A DNA stretch of 64,000 nucleotides from Candidatus Omnitrophota bacterium (GTDB taxonomy: Bacteria; Omnitrophota; Gorgyraeia; Gygaellales; Profunditerraquicolaceae), in the NCBI GenBank assembly GCA_028716245.1, contig JAQUQW010000002.1:154514-218513 (forward strand). The letters run 5' to 3'. Within the stretch, counting starts at the first letter, position 1. Every line of letters starts with the position of its first letter. Below the pieces are notes generated by a model. It saw only the letters and a list, made by a program, of their open reading frames with translations. It made no database searches and was not told the DNA's origin. The position numbers and the translations under genes were made by a program. Positions 5,563 through 53,616 of this stretch are shown here, one piece after another.

Positions 5563-6153
5563 ATGCCAAGAAAAGCGCGAAGGTTGATTGACGGGGGACA
5601 TTACCATGTTGTAACCAGGGGTATTGACTGCAGAAAATTGTTTAGAGATAAAGCGGATAATCAGTATTTTTTAAACATCATATCTGCTAATCTGCCAAAA
5701 TTCAAAATTTCAATTTTTCATTATTGTCTTATGGTAAACCACATCCATCTATTGATTAAAGCTATAAGAGCAGCGGATCTGCCAAAGTTTATGCAGGCAG
5801 TTCTACAAGGATACGCTCATTATTTCAGAAAGAAATATCTTTCGGTAGGATTTGTTTTCCAGAATCGATATAAAAGTCGGTTAATTGATAATGATACATA
5901 TCTCTTGGAATGCGGTCGATATATCGAAAGGAATCCTTTGAGATCAAAAACAGTGCTAGAGCTTTCCAGGTATCATTGGAGCAGTTATCTGCTATATGCA
6001 ACAGGTGAACAAAATGGCATAGTTAGAGTATTGGATCCTTTATATTTAGATTTAGCCAGTACAGACGAGAAACGCAGGGAGGCGTATGTTAATTATGTCT
6101 TACAGGGGCGGCCGTATGAAGATATTTTAGATAAGGAATTTCATATTAAATAG
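5563..6153 (+). mobile_element. REP-associated tyrosine transposase (RayT) / IS200-like HUH transposase gene
   Basis: 196 aa. GHYHVVTRG N-terminus, HUH motif in CLMVNHIHLLIKA, C-terminal Tyr-containing helix (RYIERNPLRS...WSSYLLY). Inserted between leuS and a response-regulator gene. Confidence 0.75.
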
Positions 6154-6562: not shown

Positions 6563-6589
6563 TAAAAAACCTATGATTACAATTAGATA

Positions 6590-6629
6590 AGACCCTGTTT
6601 CCCGATTGACTGGGAAACAGGGTCTTATA
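6590..6629. promoter_or_regulatory. Perfect 16-bp inverted repeat (AAGACCCTGTTTCCC-N8-GGGAAACAGGGTCTT) in a divergent promoter region
   Basis: Read directly from the sequence. No flanking U-tract on either strand. Lies between the divergently transcribed response regulator and comEA-like gene. Confidence 0.4.
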
Positions 6630-6681
6630 AATAGTTAGATTATGGGGTTTTGTGCGTCTATTAAAACGAGGAGGGTTGGCC

Positions 6682-45521: not shown

Positions 45522-46709
45522 ATGGCTGCGCTAAAAATATTACCGGGTATATATTCGGTGGGAGTAGTTGATTGGAATGTGCGTAATTTCCACGGGCATA
45601 CTTATACTACCAGAAGAGGCTCAACTTACAATGCCTACCTGATTATCGATGAGAAAATCGCCCTTATTGATACTGTTTATACCCCCTTTTCCGAAGAACT
45701 AATCAATAATATTAAAGAGGTTATCCCCCTGGAAAAGATCGATTATATTATCGCTAATCATGTTGAGGTCGACCACTCCGGAGCCCTGCCGGCCATCATG
45801 CCGCTTTGCCCCAAAGCCAAGATTTTCGGTACCGCCAAATGCAAGGAAGGGCTTTACCGGCATTATTACCAAAACTGGAATTTTCAAACCGTAAAAACCG
45901 GGGATAAATTAGAATTAGGCAAGCGTACTCTTAATTTTATTGAGGCGCCGATGATCCATTGGCCGGACAGCATGTTTACTTATTGCCCGCTTGATTCTCT
46001 GCTGATGCCTAATGACGCCTTTGGCCAGCATTTCGCCACCGCCGAGCGGTTTGACGACCAGGTTGATCAATGCGCGTTAATGGAGGAGGCAGAGGAATAT
46101 TATGCCAATATCCTTTGGCCGCTTAGCTCCGTAATTTCAAGAAAAATCCAGGAAATCCAGAAATTAAATCTACCGATTAAAATGATTGCTCCCAGCCACG
46201 GGATTATCTGGCGCAAGGATCCGGCTAAGATAATCAATGCCTACCGCTCTTGGAGCGCAGGCGATACCAAAAATAAAGCGGTGATTGTTTATGAGACGAT
46301 GTGGGGGGCAACTGATAAGATGGCTAAACAAATAGCCCAAGGCATAGCCAGCCAAGGGATAGAAGTCAAGCTTTATAATATCGCGGAAACCGACCGTACC
46401 GAGGTAATTACGCAGATGTTATCGGCCAAAGGTTTTCTTTTTGGTTCTTCTACCCATGACAATGATATGCTGCCGAATATTGCCGCGTTCCTTGAAATAG
46501 TTAAAGGCTTAAAACCCAAAGGCCGGCAGGTTAGTTTTTTTGGTTCTTATGGCTGGGCTGGCGGGGCAGTCGGCGAGATGCGGGAGTTGCTTAAAGATAG
46601 CGGCGCCGATTTTACTATCCCCGGCATAGCTTTTAAATATATTCCCGATCAAACTGAATTAGGGGGCTGTTTTGAATTTGGCAGTAAATTCGCCCAACTC
46701 TTGAAATGA
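45522..46709 (+). CDS. Flavodiiron protein (rubredoxin:oxygen/NO oxidoreductase, class A)
   Basis: Metallo-beta-lactamase-like diiron site HVEVDHSG plus a C-terminal flavodoxin domain. Confidence 0.85.
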   Translation: MAALKILPGIYSVGVVDWNVRNFHGHTYTTRRGSTYNAYLIIDEKIALIDTVYTPFSEELINNIKEVIPLEKIDYIIANHVEVDHSGALPAIMPLCPKAKIFGTAKCKEGLYRHYYQNWNFQTVKTGDKLELGKRTLNFIEAPMIHWPDSMFTYCPLDSLLMPNDAFGQHFATAERFDDQVDQCALMEEAEEYYANILWPLSSVISRKIQEIQKLNLPIKMIAPSHGIIWRKDPAKIINAYRSWSAGDTKNKAVIVYETMWGATDKMAKQIAQGIASQGIEVKLYNIAETDRTEVITQMLSAKGFLFGSSTHDNDMLPNIAAFLEIVKGLKPKGRQVSFFGSYGWAGGAVGEMRELLKDSGADFTIPGIAFKYIPDQTELGGCFEFGSKFAQLLK

Positions 46710-47176
46710 TAAAGATTCCCGCCGGGGTCATCGATTTTTTACGCGCCCAAAGTTTTGTGGTAATTTCGTCCGTAGACAAAGCCGGTTTTCCGCATAGTTC
46801 ATGCAAGGCGATAATCAAGATTGATCAAGCCGGCAAGATTTTTTTAATGGATGTTTACCATGGCGCAACCTGTGAAAATATAAAACGTAATCCGCAAATA
46901 AGTATTAGCGCGGTGGATGACCATAAGTTTATGGGGTATTGCCTTAAAGGCAAGGGGGAAATTATCTTTGATGACAATGTTAGCCAGGAGATGATCAAAA
47001 TCTGGGAGGACAATATCACGTCGCGCCTGGCAAAAAGACTGTTGCGTAACTTATCCGGAGACCGGGGCCACGGCCACCATCCTGAGGCCAGCCTGCCGCA
47101 TCCCAAACATATTATCGCAATCGAAGTGGAAGAGATAGTCGATCTTGCTCCGTATCATTTAAGGAAGGAGGAATAA
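46706..47176 (+). CDS. Pyridoxamine 5-phosphate oxidase-like FMN-binding split-barrel protein
   Basis: 156 aa, PNPOx-fold pattern. Confidence 0.5.
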   Translation: MIKIPAGVIDFLRAQSFVVISSVDKAGFPHSSCKAIIKIDQAGKIFLMDVYHGATCENIKRNPQISISAVDDHKFMGYCLKGKGEIIFDDNVSQEMIKIWEDNITSRLAKRLLRNLSGDRGHGHHPEASLPHPKHIIAIEVEEIVDLAPYHLRKEE

Positions 47177-47177
47177 T

Positions 47178-47414
47178 ATGGCTAAGAGCGTAATCGTTTA
47201 CAGTACTCCGAGTTGCCCTTGGTGCATCCGGGTCAAGCAGTTTTTAAAAGAGAACAACATATTATTTCTGGATTGGGATGTTTCCGTGGACCAGCTTGCG
47301 GCGGACGAAATGATTAAGAAGAGCGGGCAGATGGGGGTGCCGGTGCTGGATATCGACGGTCAGATTATCGTAGGGTTTGACAAAGAGAAAATTAAATCAG
47401 CTTTAGGAGTATAA
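47178..47414 (+). CDS. Glutaredoxin-like protein (CPWC active site)
   Basis: VIVYSTPSCPWCIRVKQFL...GVPVLDIDGQ thioredoxin-fold signature. Confidence 0.85.
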   Translation: MAKSVIVYSTPSCPWCIRVKQFLKENNILFLDWDVSVDQLAADEMIKKSGQMGVPVLDIDGQIIVGFDKEKIKSALGV

Positions 47415-47431
47415 GTTATATTTTGTACTCA

Positions 47432-47578
47432 GGACTTTGTCGCGTGCGAAATTTTTCGCCGTGTGCTGCGTTTACGACTCACTCTCGGACTGACTTACGT
47501 TGTGTGAAGGTCCTCCGTTCGTCGTAATTCCTTGCACACAGTTGCCGAAAAATTTCTAATTGCACGCTTACAAAGTCC
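47432..47578. ncRNA. 147-nt element with long nested inverted repeats (structured RNA or MITE-like), grx-trxB spacer
   Basis: 5-prime arm GGACTTTGT..GCGTGC..AAATTTTTCG..GTGTGC..TTACGAC pairs in order with the 3-prime arm GTCGTAA..GCACAC..CGAAAAATTT..GCACGC..ACAAAGTCC around an approximately 45-nt core. Confidence 0.4.
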
Positions 47579-47601
47579 TTCGACAAAATATAATTAACAT
47601 T

Positions 47602-48513
47602 ATGTATATCTACGATTTGATTATTATCGGGGCAGGGCCGGCGGGAATTACCGCCAGTGTTTACGCCGCCAGAAAAAAGTTGGATTTTCTGGTGATCAGC
47701 CTGGATATCGGCGGCCAGACCGCCTGGAGCGGTGATATCGAAAATTATACAGGATACCAATTCATTACCGGCCCGGAGTTAACCCGGAAGTTCGAAGAAC
47801 ATATGCGTAAATACGGCATTGCCTTAAAAGAAAATGAAGAAGTTTTAGGGCTTGAGAAAACCGCCGAGGTATTTTTAGTAAAAACCAATAAAGCGGATTA
47901 TCAAGCCCACAGCGTGATTATTGCTTCCGGGAAAAAATCCAGAGAGCTGGGGGTTCCGGGGGAAAAAGAATTCAAGAATCACGGCCTGACATATTGCGCT
48001 ACCTGCGATGGTCCATTATTTGCGGGCAAGGTTGTGGCGGTAATCGGAGGCGGTAACTCCGCGCTGGATGCCAGCCTGCAACTGATAAAAATCGCCAAGC
48101 ATATCTATATTATCAACAATACCGAGCGCTTGGCCGGCGATGCGATAATGCTTCAGAAAGTCCAAGAAGCCGGCAATGTGACGATTTTAAATAATCATCA
48201 GGTTAGTGCCGTCCTGGGGGATAAATTTGTCCGCGCGATTAAAATCAAAAATAAGGACCAGGAAAAAGAGTTGGCTGTCGAGGGAGTATTTGTGGAGATT
48301 GGGCTTATCCCTAATTCCGGGTTCCTTAAAGGTATAGAAAAGAACGCCTGGAATGAAATAAATATAAATTTAGATAACCAAACCAATATCCCGGGAATAT
48401 TTGCCGCCGGCGATGTTACCAATGTTCTGGAGAAACAGATTATTATTGCCGCCGGGGAAGGCTCAAAAGCCGCCTTAAGCGCTTTCCGTTATTTGGCCCA
48501 GAAAAAATTTTAG
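47602..48513 (+). CDS. trxB: Thioredoxin reductase
   Basis: IIIGAGPAG FAD motif, CATCDG redox-active disulfide, GGGNSA NADPH motif. Confidence 0.9.
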   Translation: MYIYDLIIIGAGPAGITASVYAARKKLDFLVISLDIGGQTAWSGDIENYTGYQFITGPELTRKFEEHMRKYGIALKENEEVLGLEKTAEVFLVKTNKADYQAHSVIIASGKKSRELGVPGEKEFKNHGLTYCATCDGPLFAGKVVAVIGGGNSALDASLQLIKIAKHIYIINNTERLAGDAIMLQKVQEAGNVTILNNHQVSAVLGDKFVRAIKIKNKDQEKELAVEGVFVEIGLIPNSGFLKGIEKNAWNEININLDNQTNIPGIFAAGDVTNVLEKQIIIAAGEGSKAALSAFRYLAQKKF

Positions 48514-48577
48514 AAAATAAGTTGCGGGTAATTCAGGCAATGGTACAATGAACTAAAAATTACAGGAGGAAAACAAG

Positions 48578-48799
48578 ATGAGAGACAGAATTGAAAAAGC
48601 GTTAGATAAAGTCCGGCCGATGCTGGCCGCCGACGGCGGAAATGTCGAATTGGTCGATGTCACCAGTGACGGGATAGTCAAGCTAAAGTTAAAAGGAAGC
48701 TGCGGATGCTGTCCGATGAGCTCGATGACTTTAAAGATGGGGATTGAAAAGATCTTAAGGCAGGAAGTCCCGGAAATAAAAGAAGTCATCGCTTTATAG
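48578..48799 (+). CDS. NifU-like (Nfu) Fe-S cluster carrier domain protein
   Basis: [13 protein letters not shown]...GSCGCCPMS is the Nfu C-terminal CxxC motif. Confidence 0.8.
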
Positions 48800-48812
48800 A
48801 AGAAATTTTCTG

Positions 48813-49616
48813 ATGGCTCTTCAGGATAAGCTGACTTTTCTTAAACGCAAAATTTGCGGATATAAATCCTGCGTCGTGGCGTTCTCCGGAGGACAAGACA
48901 GCGCGTTTTTGCTTAAAGTTTGTGCGCTGGCGCTGCCGGCGGATAGAATACTGGCGGTGACGGCAGTTTCTGCTACTTATCCGGAAGCAGAGCTGGCTAA
49001 GGCAAAAATATTGGCTAAAGATATCGGGGTAAGGCTTAAAGTAATCAATACTCGCGAACTGGATAATAAGAAGTTCGCCGCTAACCCCATTAAACGCTGC
49101 TATTTTTGCAAAAAAGAGCTTTTTTCAAAGTTAATTGCGATTGCCAGGCGGAATAAATTACATTCTGTTCTGGAGGCAAGCAACATTACCGATAAAAAAG
49201 ATTATCGGCCGGGAAATATTGCTAAGATTGAATTTAAAATCAAGTCACCTTTGGTGGAAGCTGGTTTTAGTAAAGAGGATATCCGTAAATTAAGCAAAAG
49301 GCTGGGGCTTTCCAGCTGGAATAAACCCAGTTTAGCCTGCTTAGCTTCGCGCATACCTTACGGCACTAAAATTACTGCCAAACTGCTTAGGCGTATCGAC
49401 CAGGCGGAAGAATATCTGGTTAGTCTGGGTTTCAAGCAGGTGCGCTTGCGCCATCATAACGGGCTCTGCCGCATTGAAGTGGATAAAAAAGACATGCCTG
49501 GCCTGTTAAAGAAACGTCAGGCGGTAGTTGAGCGTTTGAAAAATTTAGGGTATAATTATATCACCTTGGATTTAGAGGGGTATCGGCAGGGTAGTTTAAA
49601 TGAGGTAATCAGATGA
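48813..49616 (+). CDS. PP-loop ATP pyrophosphatase, LarE-like sacrificial sulfur transferase family
   Basis: VAFSGGQDS PP-loop and a conserved Cys (LACLASRIPYG) as in LarE/TIGR00268. Confidence 0.55.
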   Translation: MALQDKLTFLKRKICGYKSCVVAFSGGQDSAFLLKVCALALPADRILAVTAVSATYPEAELAKAKILAKDIGVRLKVINTRELDNKKFAANPIKRCYFCKKELFSKLIAIARRNKLHSVLEASNITDKKDYRPGNIAKIEFKIKSPLVEAGFSKEDIRKLSKRLGLSSWNKPSLACLASRIPYGTKITAKLLRRIDQAEEYLVSLGFKQVRLRHHNGLCRIEVDKKDMPGLLKKRQAVVERLKNLGYNYITLDLEGYRQGSLNEVIR

Positions 49617-50782
49617 AAAAAGTATATTTAGATTACGCGGCAACTACGCCAACTGACCCGGAAGTTATGGCGGCGATGGAGCCGTATTATTTTGAGAAAT
49701 TCGGTAATGCCTCCAGCCTTCACGCTTACGGCCAGGAGGCCAAGAAGGCCCTTGAGGATAGCCGCCAAACACTGGCGGATTTTATCGGGGCAAAACCCGA
49801 AGAGATTGTTTTTACCTCCGGCGGAACAGAATCGGATAATTCCGCGCTTTTGGGCGCGGCCTACGCGTTAGAAAAAAAAGGCAATCATATCATTACTTCT
49901 GCCATTGAACATCACGCGATTATCGAGCCGGCAAAATTCCTGGAGAAAAAAGGGTTCAAGGTTACTTATCTGGGCGTGGATAAAGACGGCCTGGTTTCCG
50001 GCGATGATTTAAAAAAGGCAATTACGGATAAAACTATCCTGATCAGCGTTATGCATGCCAATAATGAGATCGGCACGCTGCAGCCGATTGAGCAACTGGG
50101 CAAGATCGCCAAAGAGCAAGGAATTTATTTTCATACCGACGCGGTGCAGACGCTTGGGCATATCCCGATAAACGTTGGCCAACTCAACGTTGATCTCTTA
50201 TCGCTTTCGGCCCACAAATTTTACGGGCCCAAGGGAGTAGGCGCTTTGTATATTCGAAAAGGCACGCGTTTAGAAACATTCCTGCGCGGCGGAGACCAGG
50301 AAAGAGGCCGGCGCGCTTCCACGCATAATATCACCGGCATCGTCGGTTTGGCCAAGGCAATTGAGCTTTGCCAGGAAAAAATGGAGAGTGAAATTAAATT
50401 CCAGAGCGCCCTGCGCGACCGGCTGATTAAAGAGATTCCCCTTAAGGTTCCCGAAGTCAGGCTTAATGGGCATGCGCAAAAGCGCCTGCCGAATAATGTG
50501 AATTTTTCGATTAAATACATTGAAGGGGAGTCAATGCTTTTGAGCCTGGATCTGCTGGGGATTGCCTGTTCCACCGGCTCAGCCTGCACTTCCAGCTCTC
50601 TTGAACCTTCACATGTTTTATTGGCAATTGGTTTAGACCACGCAACCGCCCACGGCTCACTTAGGATAACCCTCGGCCGTTTTACCCGTGAAAGCGATAT
50701 CGATTATCTTCTGGAGAAATTACCCCTGGTTGTGCAAAAGCTGCGCGCCATGTCCCCGCTTTATGAGAGAAAAAATCCTTGA
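49613..50782 (+). CDS. nifS: Cysteine desulfurase (NifS/IscS)
   Basis: YLDYAATTP, PLP Lys in SAHKFYGPKG, active-site Cys in SSGSACTSSS. Confidence 0.9.
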   Translation: MKKVYLDYAATTPTDPEVMAAMEPYYFEKFGNASSLHAYGQEAKKALEDSRQTLADFIGAKPEEIVFTSGGTESDNSALLGAAYALEKKGNHIITSAIEHHAIIEPAKFLEKKGFKVTYLGVDKDGLVSGDDLKKAITDKTILISVMHANNEIGTLQPIEQLGKIAKEQGIYFHTDAVQTLGHIPINVGQLNVDLLSLSAHKFYGPKGVGALYIRKGTRLETFLRGGDQERGRRASTHNITGIVGLAKAIELCQEKMESEIKFQSALRDRLIKEIPLKVPEVRLNGHAQKRLPNNVNFSIKYIEGESMLLSLDLLGIACSTGSACTSSSLEPSHVLLAIGLDHATAHGSLRITLGRFTRESDIDYLLEKLPLVVQKLRAMSPLYERKNP

Positions 50783-51719
50783 TTATTTAAACAAAAAACA
50801 CGACTATCTCTCCGGGGATGAAATCAGCAGGCACCTGGGGATCAGCCGCCAGGGTTTATGGAAGCATATCCAGGAGTTAAAAGATTCCGGTTATGAAATA
50901 GTTGCTGTCCCGCATTTAGGCTACCGGCTTGAGTCCAGCCCGGATCGGCTTTTCCCTTTTGAAATTTCACGTAATCTCCATACAAAATTTATCGGTAAAA
51001 AAATCCATTATTTTGATTATTTGGCTTCCACGATGGATCTGGCGATGCAGTTGGGCCTGCAGGGGGCTGGCGATGGGGCGCTGGTATTGGCGGAATCGCA
51101 GACCAAGGGGCGCGGCAGGCTGGGCAGGAGCTGGTTTTCTCCAAAATACAAAGGGATTTACCTGTCTTTGATTTTAAGGCCTAAGTTTGCCCCGGCGGTT
51201 TCCCCGATTTTAACGCTGCTGAGTGCGGTAAGCATCTGCGAGGCAGTCAAGAATGTTACCGGCCTGGACGCGCAGATTAAATGGCCTAATGACGTATTCA
51301 TCCACAATAAAAAATTTGCCGGCATACTTACCGAGATGAATGCCGAGGTGGATAAAGTTAATTTTGTAGTCATTGGCATTGGTTTAAATGTCAATAATGA
51401 CAAAAAATCTCTGATTGCCCAGGCGACTTCGTTAAAAGAGCAGCTTGGCCATCCGCTAAGCCGTCTTGTCCTGCTGCAGGAGCTCTTGCGCAGGATGGAG
51501 GGTAATTATTTTCTCTTAGAGGATAAGGGGAACCGAGTGATCATCGATAAATGGCGTAATTTCAGCGCTACTTTAGGCAGGCACGTTAAGGTGTATTGCC
51601 AGAACAAGCATATCGAAGGATGCGCCGTGGATATCGACGGTGATGGAAGCCTGCTTGTCCGCAAAGCCTCCGGGATCATCCAAAAGATCTCCAGCGGTGA
51701 CGTCATGCATTGCCGGTAA
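50763..51719 (+). CDS. birA: Bifunctional biotin-protein ligase / bio repressor BirA (HTH + ligase)
   Basis: N-terminal HTH (LSGDEISRHLGISRQGLWKHIQEL), GRGRLGRSW biotin-binding loop, C-terminal SH3-like domain. Confidence 0.85.
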   Translation: MREKILDYLNKKHDYLSGDEISRHLGISRQGLWKHIQELKDSGYEIVAVPHLGYRLESSPDRLFPFEISRNLHTKFIGKKIHYFDYLASTMDLAMQLGLQGAGDGALVLAESQTKGRGRLGRSWFSPKYKGIYLSLILRPKFAPAVSPILTLLSAVSICEAVKNVTGLDAQIKWPNDVFIHNKKFAGILTEMNAEVDKVNFVVIGIGLNVNNDKKSLIAQATSLKEQLGHPLSRLVLLQELLRRMEGNYFLLEDKGNRVIIDKWRNFSATLGRHVKVYCQNKHIEGCAVDIDGDGSLLVRKASGIIQKISSGDVMHCR

Positions 51720-51829
51720 TGGGGGCTGTTTTTTTTATAGTCAGATAAGATTTTGTTGTTAGATTTGGCCTTTTCTTGCGTCAATTGGGCTAGAAGAGAT
51801 TCTACTAACGCGCAAGAGGGGAGGAGCAT

Positions 51830-52648
51830 ATGAAAACAAGAATAGCGGTGTTTAAAGGGCAGAAGGTACGAAAAACTATTCATAATAATGAATGGTGGTT
51901 TGTGGTTGAGGATGTAGTTTTGGTTTTGACTGATTCAAGCGATCCGAAGCAGTACATCCAAAGGATGAAACAGCGGGATGAGGAGCTTGCTAAAGGGTGG
52001 GTACAAATTGTACATACCCTTGCTATTGGAACCGTAGGCGGTAAACAGCGGATGCTTTGCGCTAATACAGAGGGCATTTTCCGTATTATTCAGTCAATCC
52101 CATCGCCCAAGGCAGAACCTTTTAAGCTATGGCTGGCCAGAGTGGGATATGAAAGGATTAAGGAGATAGAAGATCCCGAGCTTGCCACGAAAAGGACCCG
52201 CGCGCTCTACAAAGCCAAGGGGTATAGTGATGATTGGATAGAGAAGAGAATGCGCGGCATTGCTATCCGCGAAGAGTTAACCGATCAATGGGAGAAAAGA
52301 GGCATAAAGCAGGCTAAGGAATATGAAATCCTGACTGCTGAGATATCAAGCGCGACATTCGGCATGACTCCATCGGCGTATAAAAAATACAAAAAATTAA
52401 AACGGGAAAATCTGCGGGATCACATGACGGATTTAGAGCTGATTTTTTCCATGCTTGGGGAGGCCTCAACAAAAGAAATCGCCGTTAATAAAGATGCGCG
52501 GGGATTTGTTGAGAATAAACAGGCGGCGCATGAGGGCGGAACCGTTGCCGGAAACGCGAGGAAGGAATTAGAGAAAAAGAGCGGCAAGAGAGTGTCAACG
52601 CGCGAAAATTATTTAAAGGGGCCGCAAGATAAGAGCTTATTGAAGTAG
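51830..52648 (+). CDS. DinD-like / Bro-N domain protein (DNA-damage-inducible protein D family)
   Basis: WWFVVEDVVLVLTDSSDPKQYIQRMKQRD, GGKQRMLCANTEGIFRIIQSIPSPKAEPFKLWLARVGYERI closely follows the DinD/Bro-N signature. Confidence 0.55.
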   Translation: MKTRIAVFKGQKVRKTIHNNEWWFVVEDVVLVLTDSSDPKQYIQRMKQRDEELAKGWVQIVHTLAIGTVGGKQRMLCANTEGIFRIIQSIPSPKAEPFKLWLARVGYERIKEIEDPELATKRTRALYKAKGYSDDWIEKRMRGIAIREELTDQWEKRGIKQAKEYEILTAEISSATFGMTPSAYKKYKKLKRENLRDHMTDLELIFSMLGEASTKEIAVNKDARGFVENKQAAHEGGTVAGNARKELEKKSGKRVSTRENYLKGPQDKSLLK

Positions 52649-52726
52649 GCAAAAAACTATGGGATGTTTCGGGTTTTTAAAAAAGATGAAGTAGTGATAA
52701 ATAGCCGTTTCTATTTTTTTCGGTAA

Positions 52727-52939
52727 TTAAAATTCCAACAATTTAGAAGGTTTAATTTTAAATGCATTGGCAATTTTTTCTACTGAGTTCAGAGTAGGAG
52801 AAGAAGGTCTCTTACCTTCCAACCGCTGAATGTATTTATAGTCGAGCCCTGAAGCCTCAGAAAGACCTTCCTGCGTCAGTTTATTTTCCTTCCTTAATTC
52901 CTTTAAGCGCCTACCAAATCTAACATTGATGTTTTCCAT
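52727..52939 (-). CDS. XRE-family (Cro/CI-type HTH) transcriptional regulator
   Basis: 70 aa. FGRRLKELRKENKLTQEGLSEASGLDYKYIQRLE is a canonical HTH_3. Confidence 0.85.
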   Translation of the reverse strand: MENINVRFGRRLKELRKENKLTQEGLSEASGLDYKYIQRLEGKRPSSPTLNSVEKIANAFKIKPSKLLEF

Positions 52940-52973
52940 TTGTTTATATTTTCCAATAGAACTCTTCTTTTGA

Positions 52974-53022
52974 ACACCTACAATTGTAGGTGTTTTCTAT
53001 TTACACCTATTAAATTAGGTGG
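52974..53022. promoter_or_regulatory. Two related 20-bp palindromic operators (ACACCTA-N6-TAGGTGT and ACACCTA-N6-TAGGTGG) 29 bp apart
   Basis: 52974-52993 is a perfect palindrome. 53003-53022 shares the half-site. Both sit in the divergent region next to the XRE gene. Confidence 0.6.
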
Positions 53023-53175
53023 TAATCTATATTGAATTTCATAGGAGATCTTCTATAAAGATATGGCGAATAAACAAAATTACCTTTTTGAAGCTGTTGT
53101 CCATTATTTATTAATCTTCCAAAAGGCAGGGTATTAGATTTAGGTTGTGGAGATGGAGATTAAGGAGGGTTAAAA

Positions 53176-53436
53176 ATGCCTAGAAAACCAAAATTCAGGC
53201 CGGTAATTACGCGGGTAAAACTTAATCCAGAGCAGGCGGTGTTGTCGTGTAATTGTTATTATCTCGGAAAACAAGATTCAATTTCATTGGCTTGGCGTAC
53301 TGACATAGTTCCGTTACAAACGGGGTGGTGCGTAGGCGGTTTTAAGTCGCTTGCTCCTTATGGGCGTTGTGATAGTCATACGAAGGGTCGGTATGCAGTA
53401 ACTGGTGATTATGAAGTAGCCTCCGCAAATAGTTAA
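53176..53436 (+). CDS. Small Cys-rich hypothetical protein (86 aa)
   Basis: Basic N-terminus MPRKPKFRPVITRVKLNPEQ, Cys in SCNCYY, GWCVGG and GRCDSH. Good SD AAGGAGGG upstream. Confidence 0.4.
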   Translation: MPRKPKFRPVITRVKLNPEQAVLSCNCYYLGKQDSISLAWRTDIVPLQTGWCVGGFKSLAPYGRCDSHTKGRYAVTGDYEVASANS

Positions 53437-53549
53437 ATTCTTTTGAGAATTCCGGGGACATAATATTTATTTCAAAAGATAAGCAGCTGAAACAAATAAA
53501 TAGAACTGTTTCCCTGATTTTGCTATGTAAACCGTTAAATAAAATTAAG

Positions 53550-53578
53550 TTGACAATATCTCAGCTCTTTTCTATACT
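53550..53578 (+). promoter_or_regulatory. Sigma70-like promoter TTGACA-N17-TATACT for the bio operon
   Basis: Read from the sequence. A single TGTAAACC motif (BirA half-site-like) lies at 53525-53532. Confidence 0.5.
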
Positions 53579-53616
53579 GAAATCATATGAGCTGGGATTT
53601 TTTTATAAAGGATACT

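Follow-up and report, generated by a model that had tools for sequence, protein, structure and literature searches.

A 182-nt palindromic element between grx and trxB in Omnitrophota: conserved fold, sporadic occurrence, and possible retention of a mobile insert

The 64,000-nt stretch of a Candidatus Omnitrophota genome analyzed here (contig JAQUQW010000002.1; hereafter, the window) contains an oxidative-stress cluster encoding rubredoxin, desulfoferrodoxin, peroxiredoxin, a flavodiiron protein, a PNPOx-like protein, Grx, TrxB, and NifU. The grx gene (47178-47414, plus strand) was taken from the list of open reading frames (ORFs) and encodes a glutaredoxin-like protein of 78 aa with a CPWC motif, whose orthologues match PF00462 (Glutaredoxin). 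It is followed on the same strand by trxB (47602-48513), encoding a low-molecular-weight thioredoxin reductase of 303 aa with a CATC redox motif and having its true start at the ATG at 47602. A small Grx-like protein beside a TrxR-like flavoprotein is reminiscent of the peroxiredoxin-reducing pair Cp9/Cp34 of clostridia. The two genes are separated by 187 nt (47415-47601), and this spacer is filled by a palindromic element of 182 nt (47414-47595, plus strand), whose first base is also the last of the grx stop codon and which ends 6 nt 5' of the trxB ATG. The element was delimited by repeat search, folding, and comparison with homologues at other loci.

The element is predicted to form one rod-like hairpin of about 65 bp, made of seven helices (P1 to P7) and a variable apex. 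The original prediction had described an inverted repeat at 47432-47578 with five arm segments mirrored in the opposite arm. All five pair as described, forming P2 to P6, and the repeat is real, but its limits were too narrow, since the outer helix P1 widens it to 47414-47595. P1 has 13 bp and pairs the terminal inverted repeats AGTTATATTTTGT (47414-47426) and ACAAAATATAATT (47583-47595), which hold the 11-nt perfect repeat TTATATTTTGT/ACAAAATATAA. A TA dinucleotide stands just before the 5' arm (47412-47413), and another lies at the end of the 3' arm (47595-47596). The terminal inverted repeats are thus present, but pairing runs on through the whole element: P2 (47431-47440/47570-47579), P3 (47442-47447/47562-47567), P4 (47448-47458/47546-47556), P5 (47461-47466/47534-47539), and P6 (47472-47478/47521-47527), all given on the plus strand. 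The 5' arms of P2 to P6 (47431-47478) include an unpaired, conserved CC (47459-47460) and a CUGCGU loop. The 3' arms (47521-47579) include a conserved unpaired UUGC (47542-47545) and a bulge, UAAUU (47557-47561). The apical region (47483-47516) carries two small helices (47487-47491/47509-47513 and 47495-47498/47504-47507) and cannot be aligned between clades. The minimum free energy of the plus strand was -70.9 kcal/mol, compared with -38.3 +/- 3.8 in 200 dinucleotide shuffles (z = -8.7; 0/200), and that of the minus strand was -75.0 (z = -9.05). Among the intergenic regions of the window, only this spacer and the one at 6563-6651 were strongly structured.

The element does not seem to encode a protein. 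Each of the six reading frames is interrupted; no open stretch within the element exceeds about 41 codons, and this longest one lacks a usable start. A coding reading was rejected, as the members of the family described below have no frame in common. The minus-strand ORF at 47479-47760, already regarded as spurious, is mostly antisense to trxB and has no support as a gene.

Comparison with related loci shows that the element interrupts a normally compact gene pair. Among the matches listed, 80 metagenomic loci carried close relatives of TrxB, and roughly 330 further trxB loci were present in the same metagenome scan. In 76 of the 80 loci, grx lies directly upstream of trxB, and in about 60 of these 76 the gap is only -7 to +30 nt, compared with 187 nt in the window and 188 nt in locus L001. 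The ancestral junction can be written as TTAGGnnTATAA (..TTA GGn nTn TAA), followed by 0 to 10 nt and the ATG. Because related loci mostly keep the short gap, the element is an insertion into this tight junction. It is found at an identical position and with identical junctions in L001 (metagenome-assembled genome STD1_64) and L084 (GCA_041643255.1), whose flanks are 90 to 91% identical to the window. Since the three junctions are identical, a single ancestral insertion in their common ancestor is most simply assumed. The element is absent from L085 (86 to 88% nucleotide identity), where grx and trxB overlap at their stop and start codons, from L082 and L083 (26-nt gap), and from L086 (36 nt).

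Diverged homologues of the element occupy the grx-trxB spacers of L049 (also of L144, from the same population) and L051, with the same junction, helix order, and orientation. The TrxB proteins of L049 and L051 are only 71 to 73% identical to that of the window and fall in other clades of the TrxB tree. The nearest relatives of L049, loci L088 to L094 (84 to 87% TrxB identity), have gaps of -1 to 2 nt and no element; no close relatives of L051 were found in the databases. The carriers are distributed in three separate clades of the TrxB tree, nested among insert-free sisters. The blocks conserved in the homologues are TTTTYGCCGTG, GGTTTAC, CGTAAnTCCT, and TTGCCRAAAAWWTYCTRAT, the last two being present in all family members. 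In two of these loci, the end of grx itself is changed. The L049 insert extends the Grx C terminus from LGL-stop to LGLQ-stop. In L051, an extra hairpin (CAGGGACTGTCCCC...GGGGACTGTCCCTG, 964-1030) stands ahead of the element and extends into the 3' end of grx, so that the usual LGI-stop becomes LGIQGLSPS-stop.

The copies of the window, L049, and L051 each fold independently into the same P1-to-P7 rod, with a P4 of 11 bp in all three. P3 is GCGUGC/GCACGC, GCGCAC/GUGCGC, or AGGCAC/GUGCCU, depending on the member, and is separated from P4 by a 3' bulge of 4 to 5 nt (UAAUU, UAAU, or UGAU). The P4-P5 junction is CC//(N)UUUGC, and P6 is capped by a UC/UC 2x2 loop. In the model-based alignment A4, which was itself fitted to the structure and covers only three independent lineages, 95.2% of the cells were standard pairs and 15 of the 38 consensus pairs had changed on both sides, which was reached in none of 500 column shuffles. 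When partners were slid by 1 to 3 columns, only 33 to 48% of the cells were paired and 0 to 3 pairs showed double changes. On this comparative evidence, the structure is shown to be kept by compensatory changes, so that the fold and the covariation proposed as a check both hold: one rod, supported in three lineages. All 38 consensus pairs (P2 to P6, the core of covariance model R1) are Watson-Crick in the window copy. Folding energies and G-U counts were not decisive in assigning a strand: minus strands are as stable as plus strands or more so, about 95% of the pairs are Watson-Crick, and G-U pairs exceed A-C mismatches by only 3:1.

Within the clade of the window, the element has changed less than its surroundings. 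Along 6.2 kb aligned from the window, L001, and L084, 4.8% of the element columns were variable (9/188), versus 14.2% in the whole region; in grx and trxB codons, the values were 36 to 42% at third positions and 2.6 to 5% at second positions. Selection on the element would thus be as strong as at second codon positions. As few as 32 of 6,032 segments of 187 nt matched its conservation. The nine variable columns include four in the apical part (47487-47513), two in internal loops, and three in core helices; of the latter, one is disruptive, and the other two turn a G-C pair into G-U and a U-A pair into U-G on the plus strand. Divergence was 7 to 10% over the 100 nt adjoining the element on its left side and 4 to 6% over the initial 100 nt of trxB, where a conserved flavin adenine dinucleotide (FAD)-binding motif is encoded, and flank identity gave no clear signal of a co-conversion or recombination tract around the element. 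The simplest reading of these data is strong purifying selection on helices and loops alike after one ancestral insertion. The conservation in relatives that had been proposed as a check was thus found, the element being more conserved than its flanking genes.

The relation between element and host genes is reversed when clades are compared. Within the clade, the element is 95 to 98% identical and the flanks 88 to 89%, whereas between clades it is 53 to 59% identical and grx and trxB retain 67 to 76% nucleotide identity. Because the element diverges more than its host genes between clades and less within the clade, the data favor separate acquisitions from diverged sources. Ancient vertical inheritance followed by many losses is disfavored by the same reversal and by the position of the carriers among insert-free sisters.

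This distribution bears on the idea that the element is a dedicated cis-regulatory RNA of trxB, i.e., a leader binding a protein or a ligand through its conserved internal loops and spread at this locus by gene transfer. A riboswitch-like leader was among the roles first considered, and several observations agree with it. Like riboswitches and other leaders, all known copies directly precede trxB in sense orientation, no copy was found in another context among the sequences searched, and the helices covary. In addition, some unpaired blocks (CC//UUUGC, the YURAU bulge, the UC/UC 2x2 loop, and GGUUUAC/GUAAnUCCU) are kept while the helices diverge, and within the clade the element is about as conserved as second codon positions. 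Unlike such leaders, the element is not conserved across orthologous loci: it is sporadic, being missing, with tight junctions, from the nearest relatives of L049 and from L085, L082, and L086, and between clades it diverges more than the host genes. It is a near-perfect Watson-Crick rod with small loops, in which we found no multi-helix junction, pseudoknot candidate, ligand pocket, terminator/anti-terminator, or other recognizable expression platform. Its two strands fold equally well. A search of 47000-48000 against Rfam gave nothing relevant even at E <= 10, and nothing reached the gathering score in the window, L049, or L051. SRP RNA, 6S RNA, T-box, attC, and the tetraloop-receptor motif had been dropped by eye, their defining motifs being absent. 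Finally, unrelated hairpins and even a GIY-YIG gene are found at the same junction elsewhere, which suggests a hot spot rather than a leader. Overall, we consider a dedicated regulatory RNA unlikely, and the element is more likely a mobile insert on which the operon now depends than a classical riboswitch.

How trxB could be translated despite the insert is suggested by the sequences around the hairpin. No Shine-Dalgarno sequence was found within 25 nt of linear sequence 5' of the trxB ATG, whereas other genes of the window use a canonical AGGAGG at a spacing of 4 to 7 nt. A Shine-Dalgarno-like AGGAG (47405-47409, plus strand) occurs in the 3' end of grx (TTA GGA GTA TAA), 4 nt 5' of the hairpin base, and may serve as the ribosome binding site of trxB. 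The insert-free relatives carry AGGA, GGGA, or GGGG in the Leu-Gly codons of grx, 10 to 17 nt ahead of the trxB ATG. In the window, the AGGAG is 192 nt from the AUG in linear sequence, but only 4 + 6 nt remain once the rod is folded.

We tentatively favor, at somewhat less than even confidence, a mobile palindromic insert, similar to miniature inverted-repeat transposable elements (MITEs) or ERIC elements, that has been retained as an intercistronic RNA rod. Such a palindrome would have entered the TA-rich site (..GGAGTATAA^..ATG) where the stop and start codons of the translationally coupled genes grx and trxB meet, in the ancestor that the window genome shares with its two close relatives. 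Co-transcribed in the operon mRNA, it would fold into the 182-nt rod and take the 182 inserted bases out of the linear path, so that the distance between AGGAG and AUG would stay at about 10 nt, as in the insert-free relatives. The double-stranded rod is also of the type used as a substrate by RNase III or 3' exonucleases, and it would probably also determine how stable the grx part of the mRNA is relative to the trxB part. The expression of trxB would thereby become reliant on the fold, and because of this proposed dependence the whole element would be under purifying selection. The mode of mobility, the co-transcription, the bridging of Shine-Dalgarno and AUG, and the effect on mRNA processing are all points that we infer from sequence comparison and folding.

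The closest precedent for the bridging step is the split ribosome binding site of phage T4, where a hairpin reduces the distance between Shine-Dalgarno and AUG from 22 to 5 nt in gene 38 and from 27 to 11 nt in gene 25 (PMC3014915). As in these genes (for gene 25, at the 26-25 intercistronic junction), the hairpin described here is intercistronic and stands between a Shine-Dalgarno sequence and the AUG, with a predicted reduction from 192 to about 10 nt. Unlike it, the T4 hairpins are about 15 to 20 nt long and are not inserts of a repeat family; moreover, the bridging proposed here for 182 nt is deduced from the predicted fold and fits L049 less well. If it is true, the T4 principle would extend to a 182-nt insert in a cellular genome and would show that operons can tolerate, and then depend on, mobile hairpins. 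More generally, the locus offers a clean natural case of a palindromic insert that splits a translationally coupled gene pair and is then held by selection.

The bacterial elements closest to this one are MITEs, which are shorter than 200 bp, lack ORFs, have terminal inverted repeats and TA termini, and give a long stem-loop when transcribed (PMC2229807, PMC3184786). ERIC elements are co-transcribed with neighboring genes and alter mRNA stability in an orientation-dependent manner involving RNase E, and transcripts of Correia/NEMIS elements are RNase III substrates (PMC2229807, PMC3184786). Like ERIC/IRU of enterobacteria and Correia/NEMIS of Neisseria, the element is non-coding, is 100 to 200 bp long, has terminal inverted repeats and TA ends, shows filled and empty sites, and lies between operon genes as one long, presumably co-transcribed stem-loop. 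A MITE, one of the possibilities raised at the outset, is thus the best fit as to insertion, filled and empty sites, terminal inverted repeats, TA ends, and lack of an ORF, and the 182 nt lie within the limit of about 400 bp for such elements. The expected further copies were not found: in contrast to the tens to hundreds of dispersed copies per genome of those families, we detected no second one, and the independent copies all lie at one junction and in one orientation. The element also differs from ERIC and Correia in being paired over its full length, in its conserved internal loops and compensatory changes, in the strong purifying selection apparent on its orthologues, and in having no sequence similarity to them. 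Because MITEs are multi-copy and no second copy was found in the data searched, we do not class the element as a MITE, although it appears like a transcribed MITE and probably works like one.

Several results weigh against a retained mobile palindrome acting as a spacer-closing rod. The first is copy number. No second copy was found by blastn of the element against the window or by covariance model R1, which was run over the window and 142 loci; of this total of about 1 Mb, Omnitrophota loci made up about 0.55 Mb and other DNA 0.45 Mb. A 27-nt pattern of the window-type 5' arm, which is specific to the subfamily, had as its sole match among GTDB representatives (185,579 species) the orthologous locus of the L001 genome, which therefore carries no second near-identical copy. 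Second, three independent lineages have the element at the same junction and in the same orientation, which random transposition does not predict. Third, a target-site duplication may be read as TA (47412-47413 and 47595-47596) or TATAA (47410-47414 and 47589-47593), and TA likewise in L049 and L051. The context is AT-rich, however, the repeat overlaps the palindrome, and the insert-free relatives all differ from the carriers in their junction sequences, so that no duplication is certain. Fourth, the internal loops are conserved like the helices, more than is needed to close a spacer or bridge a binding site. Fifth, the spacings vary: AAGG, 2 nt, the stem, and 10 nt to the AUG in L051, and AGGA, about 10 nt, the stem, and 13 to 17 nt in L049, unless weak G-U pairs lengthen the stem there. 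Sixth, folding of 280 nt predicts partial pairing of the AGGAG with the beginning of trxB, and some of the AUG is predicted to be paired as well; no alternative conformer was identified. Lastly, because folding energy shows no strand preference and 95% of the pairs are Watson-Crick, the selected structure could be DNA rather than RNA.

As to the 280-nt fold, the rod reaches into both genes because AATTAAATC, in the 3' coding part of grx (47391-47401), has its reverse complement, GATTTGATT/GATTTAATT, early in trxB (47613-47625, Asp-Leu-Ile codons). This pairing is not kept as a structure in insert-free relatives (mean z of 0).

Other searches for further copies were also negative. The sequence covered by R1 included the window with 81 loci (464 kb) and 20 kb more from carrier genomes, with no second copy in either. 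Patterns of the conserved core gave 48 matches in IMG/VR viral contigs, all of which were chance matches according to the covariance model, and blastn against plasmids and phages gave no match to the element. N-terminally extended TrxB proteins, used as markers for further copies, were not informative in any case. By these comparisons, the element is a member of a small, undescribed family of sporadically inserted hairpins, for which a working covariance model is now available in a poorly studied phylum.

The 3' arm of the element also carries the best σ70-like match in 2.1 kb, CTTACA-16-TATAAT (47567-47594, plus strand, 10 of 12 positions), whose -10 hexamer is perfect and ends 7 nt 5' of the ATG, so that transcription would start at about the A of this codon. 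The insert could then mainly bring an outward promoter from which trxB is transcribed alone as a leaderless mRNA, in keeping with the lack of a Shine-Dalgarno sequence in its linear upstream sequence. There is a precedent in Correia elements, which carry functional promoters (PMC3184786). We regard this as improbable: the number of promoter-like sites in the region is at chance expectation (5 versus 4.2), neither the -35 part nor its distance from the ATG is shared by L049 and L051, and selection on the whole 182-nt hairpin would be left unexplained. Still more improbable is an independent small or antisense RNA gene, which had also been put forward. The fold is stable on either strand and the sequence is conserved, as such a gene would have it. 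Nevertheless, there is no terminator, no promoter of its own on either strand except the site facing trxB, no folding preference for one strand, and no Rfam match, and the element fills the spacer exactly from the stop codon to the start region.

The alternative at the DNA level is that the element is a single-stranded DNA hairpin or cruciform recognized by an HUH/Y1 enzyme (of the RAYT or IS200/IS605 type), or a site-specific "homing" insert, the similarity within the clade then resulting from recent spread instead of selection. The fully Watson-Crick consensus pairs of the window copy, the equal folding of the two strands, and the use of one site and orientation by three unrelated lineages agree with this, as do several other inserts found at the junction. 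A family of hairpins of about 80 nt (AAATTTGCGGGTCCTG.../...CAGGACCCGCAAATTT) occurs there in L002 (2914-3000), L013 (2907-3000), L020 (1946-2030), and L075 (1332-1421). L002 and L013 have it in one orientation and L020 and L075 in the other, although L013 is a sister lineage of L020. The distant lineages L010 (400-620) and L048 (2880-3000) have in common a third family, a structured insert rich in GC (GAGCGAARTTTTGCC..GGGGCAAAAYGAGCGTCCC..GCGAGAAACA); thus, two further hairpin families recur at this site in lineages far apart, and one of the two is found in either orientation. In L052 (2714-2998), an ORF for an 86-aa GIY-YIG nuclease (PF01541, 61.7 bits) lies between grx and trxB with 14-bp inverted repeats (CCCCGTTAGAGATA/TATCTCTAACGGGG) and looks like a free-standing insert of the homing-endonuclease type. 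L048 has a grx-trxB gap of 992 nt with a 180-aa ORF that has no Pfam match, and L071 has a perfect 60-nt hairpin at the junction. The grx-trxB junction of Omnitrophota would thus be an insertion hot spot with at least five different kinds of insert. The possibility that inserts merely lengthen a native junction hairpin was rejected, since 58 insert-free junctions had a mean z of 0.

A candidate enzyme, the only gene seen in the window that might supply a transposase in trans, is also encoded there. A Y1_Tnp protein (PF01797) of 196 aa is encoded directly after leuS (5563-6153, plus strand), and a related gene is present in L082. Its best NCBIfam match is the REP-associated tyrosine transposase (RAYT), at 52 bits, below the curated cutoff of 80. 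The spacer upstream of this gene (from 5456) carries GGGGGAC direct repeats and the palindrome GGACGTCC, and a perfect 17-bp hairpin (6587-6628) lies about 430 nt downstream of it, between a response-regulator-like ORF and the next gene. REP units are 20 to 40 nt long and REPINs about 60 to 110 nt; both are multi-copy and are frequently found on either side of a RAYT gene. The element resembles them as an extragenic palindrome whose hairpin appears to be under selection, in a window with a RAYT-like gene. It differs from them in its length of 182 nt, in being single-copy as far as was seen, in its distance of 41 kb from the Y1 gene, and in its lack of similarity to the hairpins flanking that gene. 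A CAGGAC motif that seemed to link the hairpin families to each other or to the Y1 flanks was dropped, its orientation being inconsistent. In addition, the identical junctions of the window, L001, and L084 most simply reflect one ancestral insertion, and the left flank lacks the raised identity that would mark co-conversion. An element acting at the DNA level therefore appears about as doubtful to us as a dedicated regulatory RNA.

A bolder reading is somewhat less likely than either of these. The element might be a new horizontally mobile, site- and orientation-specific structured module whose loops are recognized by a protein, acting either as an RNA "cassette" that controls the translation of thioredoxin reductase or as a hairpin-guided DNA element homing to the grx-trxB junction. 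The practical value of the element would be modest unless regulation or site-specific mobility is demonstrated.

Two further observations were made in the regions around the element. Compared with window positions 45522-51718, the sequences of L082 and L008 are 82% identical downstream of the grx-trxB junction (92% for the TrxB protein) and 76% identical upstream of it (78% for Grx and 67% for PNPOx), which suggests a recombination breakpoint at or near the junction in this lineage. A variable island separates the birA-like gene from the bioB-like gene (window 51720-53580; L082 8190-10130). In the window, it encodes a Bro-N domain protein (51830-52648) and, on the minus strand, a small helix-turn-helix protein (52727-52939); in L082, it holds the Y1_Tnp gene and a partial duplicate of its 3' end, and in L085 and L086, TPR or lipase-like genes.

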